A stretch of DNA of 31,601 nt from Minisyncoccota bacterium (lineage in GTDB: Bacteria > Patescibacteriota > Minisyncoccia > Minisyncoccales > UBA10102), in the NCBI GenBank assembly GCA_036397395.1, contig DASWIZ010000038.1, positions 1-31,601 on the forward strand, in the 5' to 3' direction. Position 1 is the stretch's first letter. The number at the start of each line of letters is the position of its first letter. Under the pieces are notes generated by a model, which saw nothing but the letters and a program-made list of their open reading frames with translations, searched no databases and was not told the DNA's origin. Positions 30,254-31,482 of the stretch are shown here, in pieces. Made by a program: the position numbers and the translations under genes.

Positions 30254-30324
30254 CGGGATATAGTGTAACGGCAGCACGAGTCCTTTGGGAGGATTTAGTC
30301 TCGGTTCAAATCCGAGTATCCCGA
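30254..30324 (+). tRNA. tRNA-Pro (anticodon UGG)
   Basis: Hand-folded: acceptor CGGGATA/TATCCCG (the C1:G72 pair typical of bacterial tRNA-Pro), U8 A9, anticodon arm AGUCC-UUUGGGA-GGAUU, T-arm CTCGG-TTCAAAT-CCGAG, discriminator A. 71 nt. No encoded CCA. Confidence 0.65.
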
Positions 30325-30389
30325 CCCTTCGACAAGCTCAGGGTCTGCGACGTTGAGCGCAGGAGAAGGGCCCTGAGTTTATCGAAGGG
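30325..30389. repeat. Long imperfect hairpin (19-bp arms, 17/19 paired) immediately 3' of tRNA-Pro
   Basis: cccttcgacaagctcaggg ... ccctgagtttatcgaaggg, with an inner stem ctgcg/cgcag. Confidence 0.6.
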
Positions 30390-30404
30390 CTGCAATTAAT
30401 TATT

Positions 30405-30659
30405 ATGTACGAAGTATACATTCTTCGCGGTCCAAAGAACCACCTTTATGTAGGAGTAAGCTCAAACGTTGTATCGCGGGTTAAGCGGCACCAAAGCGGT
30501 GACGGCGCAGAATTTACTAAGCGAACACAAAGCTTCGAACTGGTATATCGTGAATCATTCAAGACGCTGCGAGAAGCGCGTGGGAGAGAACATCAAATTA
30601 AAGGGTGGCGAAGAGAAAAGAAAGAAAATTTGATAAAGTACGGCAAACCAATTATTTAA
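30405..30659 (+). CDS. Small GIY-YIG nuclease-domain protein
   Basis: VYILRGPKNHLYVGVSSNV..RVKRHQ..REHQIKGW are the GIY...YIG/Arg/Glu motifs. 84 aa, wedged between two tRNA genes. Confidence 0.65.
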   Translation: MYEVYILRGPKNHLYVGVSSNVVSRVKRHQSGDGAEFTKRTQSFELVYRESFKTLREARGREHQIKGWRREKKENLIKYGKPII

Positions 30660-30664
30660 GAATT

Positions 30665-30738
30665 GCGGGTGTAGCACAGTGGTAGTGCATCAGGTTTCCA
30701 ACCTGACCACGAGGGTTCGATTCCCTTCACCCGCTCCA
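30665..30738 (+). tRNA. tRNA-Gly (anticodon UCC)
   Basis: Hand-folded: acceptor GCGGGTG/CACCCGC, D-arm GCAC-AGTGGTA-GTGC, anticodon arm TCAGG-TTTCCAA-CCTGA, T-arm GAGGG-TTCGATT-CCCTT, discriminator U, encoded CCA. 74 nt. A short hairpin and T-run at 30741-30775 follow. Confidence 0.8.
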
Positions 30739-30830
30739 CTATATCAGGAAAAGCTGATATGTGAGCTCAATTTTTCGTAGAATTCAGATCACAAGTTTGA
30801 CTTTCAGTACCAACATGGTACAAAGAAGGT

Positions 30831-31112
30831 ATGAAACAGACATCACTAAGCTACAATTCGAGTCCTCTGTTCAAAGGAGGAGGCATTGTAGGCAAAAAGC
30901 CGTCCTTCTTGTTAGGGGTTGCCCAGCTTGTAGATTTCATGAATGTCCTGTCAAAAGACTACGTTAGAACTCTGGACAGGGAAGACATTGACATTCTCTC
31001 CATTGCTTCAGACTGGGATACGGTTGGACGCGACCTCAAAGTATCCATTGACTTGTATGAGCAAGAAGAAAAAGAAAAGGCAGCAAAACAACGTACCCTT
31101 GCCTTCGCCTAA
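30831..31112 (+). CDS. Hypothetical protein (93 aa). The start is uncertain.
   Basis: Protein-like composition. It overlaps the 5' end of the DUF2335 ORF in another frame. Confidence 0.25.
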   Translation: MKQTSLSYNSSPLFKGGGIVGKKPSFLLGVAQLVDFMNVLSKDYVRTLDREDIDILSIASDWDTVGRDLKVSIDLYEQEEKEKAAKQRTLAFA

Positions 31113-31482
31113 ATTCCCTCCGACGAACAACGAAGGACAACAAACTAGCCCACAAATAAATGAGGGACGAGTTTTCCGTCGTGAAGAAATTACTTTTTCT
31201 GGACCCCTTCCCCCGCCAAATATATTGGAACGCTACGACCAAATAAGTCCTGGTGCTGCGCAAAAGATTATTTCCATGGCTGAAAGCCAGGCAGAGCATA
31301 GGAAATACTTGGAGAAAAAAGTTGTAGATTCAAGGGTCGGGGATTCAAGACTGGGACTGTATTTCGGGTTTGGTACCGGAATGACATTGATTATAGCGGG
31401 AGTGATATTAGCCCTTAATGCTCTGAATTACAAAACTCTCCAACGCCCATTTGTTTGGATAAACCGAAAACAGCTCACGTAG
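31057..31482 (+). CDS. DUF2335-family membrane protein (phage/plasmid-associated)
   Basis: FSGPLPPPNILERYDQISPGAAQKIISMAESQAEHRKYLEK matches the DUF2335 signature. It is followed by a TM helix (LYFGFGTGMTLIIAGVILAL). ATG 31057 is in frame with the track ORF that begins at 30943. Confidence 0.5.
   Translation: MSKKKKKRQQNNVPLPSPKFPPTNNEGQQTSPQINEGRVFRREEITFSGPLPPPNILERYDQISPGAAQKIISMAESQAEHRKYLEKKVVDSRVGDSRLGLYFGFGTGMTLIIAGVILALNALNYKTLQRPFVWINRKQLT

Follow-up and report, generated by a model that had tools for sequence, protein, structure and literature searches.

In this 31,601-nt contig of a Minisyncoccota bacterium (DASWIZ010000038.1, the whole of which we call the window), a long hairpin and a gene for an 84-aa GIY-YIG nuclease lie between the tRNA-Pro(TGG) and tRNA-Gly(TCC) genes. 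The two form a single compact insert of ~335 bp that splits an ancestral tRNA pair (Table 1). Hairpin and gene make up one conserved unit that recurs phylum-wide at tRNA 3′ ends, which the initial annotation of this region had overlooked. We propose that the unit is probably a mobile homing-type cassette, placed after C74 of tRNA-Pro and transcribed by read-through from the tRNA promoter, and we infer that the nuclease itself has a role in its mobility.

A cassette family linked to tRNA and tmRNA 3′ ends

We compared the window with 120 metagenomic contig loci matched by the anticodon arm of its tRNA-Pro(TGG). In ~70 of these, tRNA-Gly(TCC) follows tRNA-Pro(TGG) after 0–100 nt, mostly 0–11 nt, and the only locus sharing the 338-nt gap of the window is L194, which comes from the same strain (100% identity). 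Because rny adjoins the tRNA pair in many of these loci, we regard them as orthologous. Unoccupied examples include L119, with the spacer ATT and a tRNA-Gly 91% identical to that of the window, as well as L202, L159 and L112. The module of tRNA-Pro(TGG), leader, GIY-YIG gene and, a few nucleotides on, tRNA-Gly(TCC) is also present in L005 (a Spechtbacterales genome), L208 and L210; L209 has the same module on a contig that ends before tRNA-Gly. The GIY-YIG proteins of these four loci are 85–89% identical to that of the window, and the neighborhoods in which the module lies are unrelated. The cassette thus shows the presence/absence pattern at a conserved site that is expected of homing genes, with ~70 empty orthologous sites against the occupied ones in the window, L005, L208 and L210. 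The initial annotation had suggested that the gene is a selfish-type insertion and had proposed comparing the spacing of the two tRNA genes in relatives that lack it; that comparison bears the suggestion out, as do the tRNA 3′ end repeats, decayed copies and different occupied tRNA-Pro genes found in relatives and described below. The tRNA pair of the window is inverted relative to rny, which faces the pair from the opposite side in most relatives.

A survey of 80 loci from GTDB species-representative genomes recovered GIY-YIG homologs from Levybacteria, Spechtbacterales and related groups. Where an upstream tRNA was identifiable, all close homologs (57–85% identity) follow, at a distance of 45–250 nt, a same-strand tRNA-Pro gene with the anticodon TGG, GGG or CGG. 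Homologs at ~55% identity follow tmRNA, those at ~40–50% follow tRNA-Met, Gln, Glu or Ser, and one clade from Proteobacteria and Acidobacteria has no neighboring tRNA. In a neighbor-joining tree the three anticodons are intermixed within a single Pro clade, which means that the cassette has moved from one tRNA-Pro gene to another. The tRNA types within one clade end alike (...CCCGAC for Pro; ...GCAAC, GCAGC or GCTGC for Met, Gln and Glu). The sequence TTCGAC starts exactly 3 nt past the discriminator base in nearly all loci, and in tmRNA and CCA-encoding tRNA genes it comes after CCA. Protein clades track tRNA type, each preferring tRNAs with a particular 3′ end, and the junction position is fixed at tRNA position 74/75. 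Cassettes in the family span 0.33–0.45 kb, usually with one locus per genome among the 80, and the wider UPF0213 family is a large one, with 5,543 clusters (50% identity) at an E-value of 0.001 or better.

Several loci of the survey have distinctive surroundings. In L048, L054, L059, L062 and L066 (~2750–3400), which hold the homologs of Acidobacteria, Reyranella and other Alphaproteobacteria that are not beside tRNAs, the gene lies between inverted copies of another repeat, TTGTCATCCCGAGCGHAGCGAGGGA, of which each locus has several. In L007 and L026 (upstream of the leader) and in L040 and L046, the cassette abuts conserved sequence that was not recognized as tRNA by ARAGORN or Rfam and that ends ...GTTCAGTAATTGCGAC and ...GATTGGCCCTGC. 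In L037 (2530–2799), the tRNA upstream of the cassette bears a group I intron (Rfam RF00028, 70.6 bits), and because intron and cassette are both there, this tRNA gene hosts two different selfish elements.

The structured leader and the minimal nuclease

The leader is made up of three hairpin units with the pattern X-TGAGYTYRYCGAA-X′, of which the first is inverted, the second degenerate and the third well conserved; the first unit reads C74-N-N-TTCGACAAGCTCA-N′N′G. Its lowest-energy fold, at −38.2 kcal/mol, is more stable than shuffled sequences (−21.1 ± 3.5 kcal/mol; z = −4.95; 0/200 shuffles as stable). C74 is invariant in 21/21 distinct leaders. For the covariation analysis, we chose blocks without regard to complementarity and then counted pairs. 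Over helix P1 (C74-N75-N76-T-T-C with G-A-A-N′-N′-G) and the stem of the third unit, 98.9% of cells are paired, with 32 two-sided changes compared to 10.5 ± 2 in shuffles (0/500 reach 32) and no one-sided change. P1 positions 75/76 and their partners, across 26 loci, are AU in 10, UA in 7 and CG in 4 at one pair and CG in 12 and UA in 8 at the other, and shifting the partner by 1–3 columns lowers pairing to ~50% or less. The third-unit stem variants CCC/GGG, AGC/GCT, TCC/GGA, GGC/GCC and CGG/CCG all still pair. In addition, the triplet that comes after GCTCA can pair with the junction triplet, closing the first unit. These compensatory changes show that the fold of the leader is conserved.

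The fold supported by covariation has a constrained energy of −29.5 kcal/mol, compared to −38.2 kcal/mol for the long hairpin that pairs the first unit with the third, so two alternative leader folds are possible. We rejected the simple long hairpin as the conserved structure, because covariation links the junction bases in relatives to the first GAANNG block and not to the third-unit stem. The window and L005 share 92% identity in the leader even though the adjacent open reading frame (ORF) is saturated at synonymous sites (pS 0.84), and the leader sequence itself is therefore constrained. A covariance model (R1) built from 13 leaders scores 86 bits on the + strand of the window and 25 on the − strand, and in nearly all Patescibacteria loci it has a + strand match immediately 5′ of the gene. 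A search with it of 661 kb of tRNA-Pro loci without the gene gave no match (best E-value 0.47). The leader had only chance-level matches to Rfam 15 covariance models (E-value of 2.5 or worse, over 30326–30433), and an Rfam search with gathering scores and with E-values up to 10 matched the two tRNAs only.

The stability of the hairpin would also be expected of a generic element unrelated to the gene, be it a terminator or attenuator after tRNA-Pro or a dispersed palindrome of the repetitive extragenic palindromic (REP) or miniature inverted-repeat transposable element (MITE) type. Its palindromic units in inverted doublets resemble those of REPINs, and units stand on both sides of the gene in L007, L051 and L082. 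We nevertheless regard a generic hairpin as extremely improbable. The G+C-rich stem with a U-run that defines an intrinsic terminator is not found here: the hairpin is not flagged as a terminator and is followed by UGCAAUUAAUUAUU and then the ATG, with no U-tract, and the downstream tRNA-Gly needs read-through. The unit motif is confined to the two hairpin arms within the window, it occurs elsewhere (36/84 loci) almost exclusively directly upstream of GIY-YIG genes and the P2-loop sequences vary with protein clade.

The protein encoded downstream of the leader matches PF01541 over residues 2–75 of 84 (E-value 1.8e-13; 51 bits, cut-off 22.6). A profile of 22 homologs finds two UPF0213 structures, PDB 1zg2 (BH0048; E-value 5.7e-14) and PDB 1ywl (EF2693; E-value 3.7e-09), and the closest relatives are proteins of ~85–110 aa that consist of the catalytic domain only, which places the protein in the UPF0213 branch. 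An AlphaFold2 model (pLDDT 87) has the α/β fold of GIY-YIG enzymes; in Foldseek searches its neighbors are 1zg2, Slx1 (6seh and 7cq3) and then the UvrC GIY-YIG domain (1yd5), and it superposes on the Slx1 nuclease domain with a root-mean-square deviation of 2.1–2.7 Å over ~71 residues. The alignment has 27 invariant columns. Y5, G17, R25, H29, E62 and N75 are invariant in the 22 homologs, and Y15 is at least 90% conserved; from their likeness to residues of I-TevI and UvrC, we take the conserved Y, G, R, H, E and N to have catalytic roles. Between the window and L005, pN is 0.09 and pS is 0.84, which indicates purifying selection on the protein. These comparisons identify it as a predicted UPF0213/Slx1-like catalytic domain under purifying selection. 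Searches of NCBIfam, PHROGs and PADLOC gave nothing meaningful (best, PADLOC E-value 0.007). Public gene calls omit the 84-aa ORF in all public assemblies of the strain and annotate instead a 54-aa ORF in another frame (30469–30633), which explains why an exact-protein look-up of the 84-aa sequence returned no record.

Mobility, mechanism and relation to known elements

Traces of movement are found at related loci. In 7/49 loci (L013, L028, L037, L038, L052, L057 and L061), 14–20 nt of the tRNA 3′ end are repeated 14–53 nt past the stop codon, and the two copies are spaced 387–423 nt apart. The repeat spans T-loop positions 57–61 to C74 and always ends at C74, after which the sequences diverge; N75 is therefore the first base of the cassette, and bases 75/76, which co-vary, are cassette-derived. 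Because the window copy has no such repeat, its own boundaries are drawn from relatives, by analogy with which it would be inserted directly after C74. In L014, L019, L020, L023 and L036, the leader adjoins foreign or partial pieces of a tRNA-Pro 3′ end, and the GIY-YIG gene is truncated in L032, L035 and L070. L028 also carries a 109-nt direct repeat (2890–2998 and 3277–3385; 98% identical) on either side of the GIY-YIG gene. Both copies consist of the 3′ end of tRNA-Pro and the complete leader, and the repeat could be the footprint of a tandem arrangement or of a circular junction. In L019, an unidentified insert of ~118 nt (2757–2874) separates tRNA-Pro(CGG) from a 22-nt repeat of its 3′ end that precedes the leader, which may reflect a second insertion at the same site.

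A scan found no promoter-like site between tRNA-Pro and the ATG. Because there is no room for a promoter and tRNA-Gly normally follows tRNA-Pro within ~10 nt, we propose read-through transcription from the tRNA-Pro promoter. The cassette would then be transcribed inside the tRNA precursor, from which an RNase Z-type cut after the discriminator and an RNase P cut 5 nt past the stop codon, where tRNA-Gly(TCC) begins, would release a small mRNA. The first bases of this mRNA, from C74 onward, would be locked in helix P1, and such a 5′-terminal stem could shield the mRNA and restrain its translation. As a homing-type selfish element, the cassette would spread or persist through breakage by the nuclease of unoccupied tRNA genes in the T-loop region (positions 57–61), where the repeats begin, followed by repair that copies the cassette in from an occupied gene. 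Homology on the tRNA side only, combined with end-joining, would leave the 14–20-nt tRNA 3′ repeat that extends from the cut site to C74.

Several observations weigh against this mechanism. The protein is under strong purifying selection (pN 0.09 compared to pS 0.84), and the clade that includes the window has kept the Pro/Gly slot in at least four divergent genomes, features that would suit an active homing element and a long-resident or domesticated gene equally well. Viral contigs contain almost no members of the family, with one partial match and no transfer vector identified, and we found no tRNA-Pro 3′ end repeat flanking the window copy. Pfam detects no second domain in the 84-aa protein, which has no obvious DNA-recognition domain, and Slx1, its nearest relative in fold, is structure-selective and not sequence-specific. 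With regard to whether the leader acts as RNA or as DNA, G-U pairs are absent from P1 and P3, and a comparison of strand folding favors the + strand at 21 loci versus 12 (p = 0.044), a weak difference.

The gene could instead be a domesticated host gene, a vertically inherited UPF0213 enzyme that serves, for example, in Slx1-like processing of branched DNA, owes its expression from tRNA operons to chance, is immobile now or always has been and has the leader merely as its 5′ untranslated region. The purifying selection, the slot retained in four divergent genomes, the usual single locus per genome, the near absence from viral contigs and the resemblance to a cellular nuclease all speak for this explanation, but the patchy distribution of the cassette speaks against it: nearly all orthologous tRNA-Pro(TGG) loci are without the cassette. 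The occupied genes are of many kinds, comprising three different tRNA-Pro genes, whose anticodons are mixed in the tree, and genes for tmRNA and for tRNA-Met, Gln, Glu and Ser. Repeats of tRNA 3′ ends, foreign tRNA fragments and truncated copies exist as well. We therefore judge a domesticated gene unlikely and favor the mobile homing-type cassette.

The leader might be more than a 5′ untranslated region, namely a working partner of the minimal nuclease that, as RNA or as hairpin or cruciform DNA, recruits or guides it to tRNA-gene 3′ ends, an idea that we put forward as a doubtful one. If the idea is true, the cassette would be a new structure- or RNA-assisted mobile element specific for tRNA genes, and the first function of a UPF0213 protein would have been found.

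The cassette is related to two known kinds of element, free-standing homing endonuclease genes and elements that integrate at tRNA ends. SegB is a GIY-YIG homing endonuclease gene in the tRNA gene cluster of phage T4. Like the cassette, the free-standing GIY-YIG homing genes of T4-like phages, notably SegB, are small genes lying between tRNA genes, are present or absent between relatives and are presumed to spread by a break in the empty allele and its repair (SegB is discussed in PMC13096335 and PMC2988022). Enzymes of the Seg and I-TevI type bear a C-terminal DNA-binding domain, whereas the 84 residues of the cassette protein form a catalytic domain, which belongs to the UPF0213/Slx1 branch; because it has no DNA-binding domain, it is not of the Seg/I-TevI type. 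The cassette further differs from the Seg genes in being chromosomal in Patescibacteria and not phage-borne; its junction is always at tRNA position 74/75, and its structured leader is conserved. With islands and prophages that use tyrosine integrases, it shares the tRNA and tmRNA 3′ ends as a target and, in some cassettes, the 14–20-nt repeat from T-loop to 3′ end; unlike them, it measures 0.33–0.45 kb and has no integrase, and the window copy has no repeat.

The protein shares a sequence family (1zg2) and a fold with UPF0213/Slx1 proteins, and Slx1, YhbQ and YazA have been assigned to one family (PMC7017083). Slx1 has a C-terminal zinc finger of the RING/PHD type and the partner Slx4. The cassette protein has neither; it ends with the catalytic domain, and only the nuclease domain aligns. 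Our literature search found no link to tRNA genes and no structured leader for bacterial members of the UPF0213/Slx1 family.

Two further systems combine palindromes or structured RNAs with enzymes of this general kind. In REP/REPIN-RAYT systems, a transposase-like HUH gene (a REP-associated tyrosine transposase, or RAYT) stands beside short palindromic units. The resemblance to the cassette lies in a single-copy nuclease-type gene by palindromic units, some of them inverted doublets forming a long hairpin; the cassette differs in having no dispersed units (in the 31.6-kb window and in 661 kb of related loci without the gene), in encoding a GIY-YIG and not an HUH enzyme and in being fixed at tRNA 3′ ends. 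TnpB/IscB omega RNAs and IS110 bridge RNAs are element-encoded structured RNAs that act with a nuclease or a recombinase. These elements likewise have a structured non-coding end segment by a small nuclease ORF and base-pairing at junction nucleotides (the OMEGA systems are reviewed in PMC13565253). In the cassette, by comparison, junction bases 75/76 appear to be element-derived and the enzyme class differs, and we liken the leader to these RNAs by architecture alone.

Our searches of the literature and of Rfam yielded no account of GIY-YIG genes located at tRNA 3′ ends in bacteria, which does not prove that none exists. The UPF0213 enzyme reduced to its catalytic domain, the fixed 74/75 junction and the co-varying structured leader appear to be new. 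For UPF0213 (YhbQ, YazA and BH0048), structures were solved in 2005, and we know of no function. The strict, clade-specific tie to tRNA and tmRNA 3′ ends, together with the co-varying leader, provides a concrete functional hypothesis for this family, in which the nuclease would discriminate the ends of tRNA genes and its mRNA would be freed by tRNA-processing enzymes. At ~0.33 kb, the cassette would rank among the smallest autonomous-looking mobile units in bacteria, and it resides within tRNA operons of the reduced genomes of Patescibacteria.

The tRNA slot, the DNA after tRNA-Gly and other features of the window

The initial annotation had also proposed that the region is an insertion hotspot, and other insertions in related loci agree with this for the Pro/Gly slot. 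L105, L151 and L180 carry in the Pro/Gly gap an ORF of 200–232 aa with an N-terminal helix-turn-helix (HTH) and the motif 'LGIGLYWGEGD', ending 1–3 nt before tRNA-Gly. In L185 (544–1000), a different GIY-YIG gene (PF01541, E-value 3e-12) starts at the CCA of tRNA-Gly(TCC) and is followed by two hairpins and a 17-nt repeat (15/17 identical) of the tRNA-Gly 3′ end. Insertions have therefore made repeated use of the slot and of the two tRNA ends. Our guess that the HTH ORFs are LAGLIDADG enzymes was not confirmed, as searches of Pfam and of PDB sequences assigned them to no nuclease family.

Of the features that the initial annotation had listed, tRNA-Pro, the hairpin, the GIY-YIG gene, tRNA-Gly with its encoded CCA (T-CCA at 30735–30738 by direct reading of the sequence) and the DUF2335 gene are all present; the terminator placed 3′ of tRNA-Gly is weak, as its 7-bp stem is A/U-rich and has no U-run next to it (z = −1.86), and a terminator scan did not flag it.

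Table 1 Coordinates of the cassette and its neighbors in the window
Feature	Positions	Strand	Basis
tRNA-Pro(TGG), host gene abutted by the cassette	30254–30326	+	ARAGORN
tRNA-Pro(TGG) through discriminator A73	30254–30324	+	Rfam RF00005, 61.2 bits
C74, last host-derived base by analogy; also first base of helix P1	30325	+	Repeats in 7 related loci
Putative cassette, whole (leader and GIY-YIG ORF), ~335 bp	30326–30660	+	Absent/present comparison among relatives
Structured leader	30325–30390	+	Folding, covariance model
65-nt hairpin, lowest-energy fold	30325–30389	+	−38.2 kcal/mol
Helix P1, CCCTTC (30325–30330) pairing with GAAGGG (30365–30370)	30325–30370	+	Covariation
Helix P2, inside P1, GCTCA with TGAGC; loop carries GTCTGCGAC	30336–30340 with 30354–30358	+	Constrained fold
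Third unit, stem CCC/GGG (30371–30373 with 30387–30389), 13-nt loop TGAGTTTATCGAA (30374–30386)	30370–30390	+	
GIY-YIG nuclease ORF, 84 aa, UPF0213/Slx1-like, catalytic domain only	30405–30659	+	PF01541
tRNA-Gly(TCC), downstream partner of the ancestral tRNA pair	30665–30738	+	ARAGORN; Rfam 71.6 bits
93-aa ORF, family unknown, outside the cassette	30831–31112	+	No profile match
DUF2335 gene remnant, outside the cassette	31132–31482	+	PF10097, E-value 9e-18
Approach and start of a broken DDE transposase remnant, running past the window end, boundary undefined	31483–31601	−	

The initial annotation had further placed the edge of an integrated element at tRNA-Gly, with the element extending past the window. 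We examined 10 kb downstream of tRNA-Gly on L085, a 40-kb contig of the same strain that extends the window, and found neither an integrase nor a direct repeat of the tRNA-Gly 3′ end, with 3 mismatches allowed. The order on L085 is the 93-aa ORF, the DUF2335 remnant and a broken DDE transposase, followed by a histidine kinase, a response regulator and pilus genes; the 10 kb also hold a T2SS-E (pilus) ATPase, DUF3800 and PemK. The 93-aa ORF had no match in Pfam, NCBIfam, PHROGs or PADLOC and was recovered solely on contigs of this strain. The DUF2335 ORF matches PHROG 3996 ('membrane protein'; E-value 1.6e-26) over profile positions 16–111 of 152 only; past the stop codon that ends the 93-aa ORF, no ATG is in frame with it, and it lacks the second membrane helix. 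The transposase (L085 2138–2941, − strand; PF13612/PF01609, DDE_Tnp_1) is broken into ORFs of 190 and 73 aa, and no terminal inverted repeats were found for it. Two other assemblies of the strain are interrupted at window position 31501/31502, which is what a repeated sequence would be expected to cause.

That tRNA-Gly is the attachment site of a larger phage, plasmid or island, starting at DUF2335 and running beyond the window, is very unlikely in our judgment. PHROG 3996 is a family of phage 'moron' membrane proteins, the transposase remnant comes next and the cassette of L185 uses the 3′ end of tRNA-Gly(TCC), all as such an element might have it, but an integrase and a second tRNA-Gly 3′ end are both missing from the 10 kb and the DUF2335 ORF is itself a remnant without a start codon. 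The two features by which tRNA islands are recognized are likewise missing here, as the cassette has no integrase and the window has no far-end repeat of the 3′ end of either tRNA-Pro or tRNA-Gly. The region after tRNA-Gly is a small patch of decayed mobile DNA and not a demonstrable tRNA-Gly island.

The window, which belongs to a genome of the Patescibacteria (CPR), also encodes NusA, trigger factor, ClpP and RNase Y, along with a type IV secretion-like cluster. Upstream of tRNA-Pro, the Na+/H+ exchanger gene (29452–30177) is a fragment, and a 95%-identical relative, L001, has ~612 nt extra at window position ~29918–29930. A 135-aa PD-(D/E)XK nuclease ORF (13652–14059; PF13366, E-value 8e-31) is bracketed by 36-nt TACGAAT-rich inverted repeats (13607–13642 and 14051–14086; 83% complementary) and is the second small nuclease gene in the window with the look of a selfish cassette. 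The VirB4/TraC-TraG-like ATPase of the secretion-like cluster (14671–18711) bears an intein with a LAGLIDADG_3 homing domain (~aa 314–968). Two families of intergenic direct repeats occur: a promoter-like repeat of 35 nt (AAATCTTGTCAAG...TGCTAGCAT) in three copies (11313–11347, 11884–11918 and 12608–12642), and one of 42 nt in two copies (21139–21180 and 21937–21978; 90% identity) with a weak third (62%) at 26187–26228. Finally, a glycine-rich ORF of 1038 aa (968–4084) contains ALK_LTK_GRD and PKD domains and many GGCGGA-type repeats, and its GC content is ~60%, compared to ~46% in the rest of the window.

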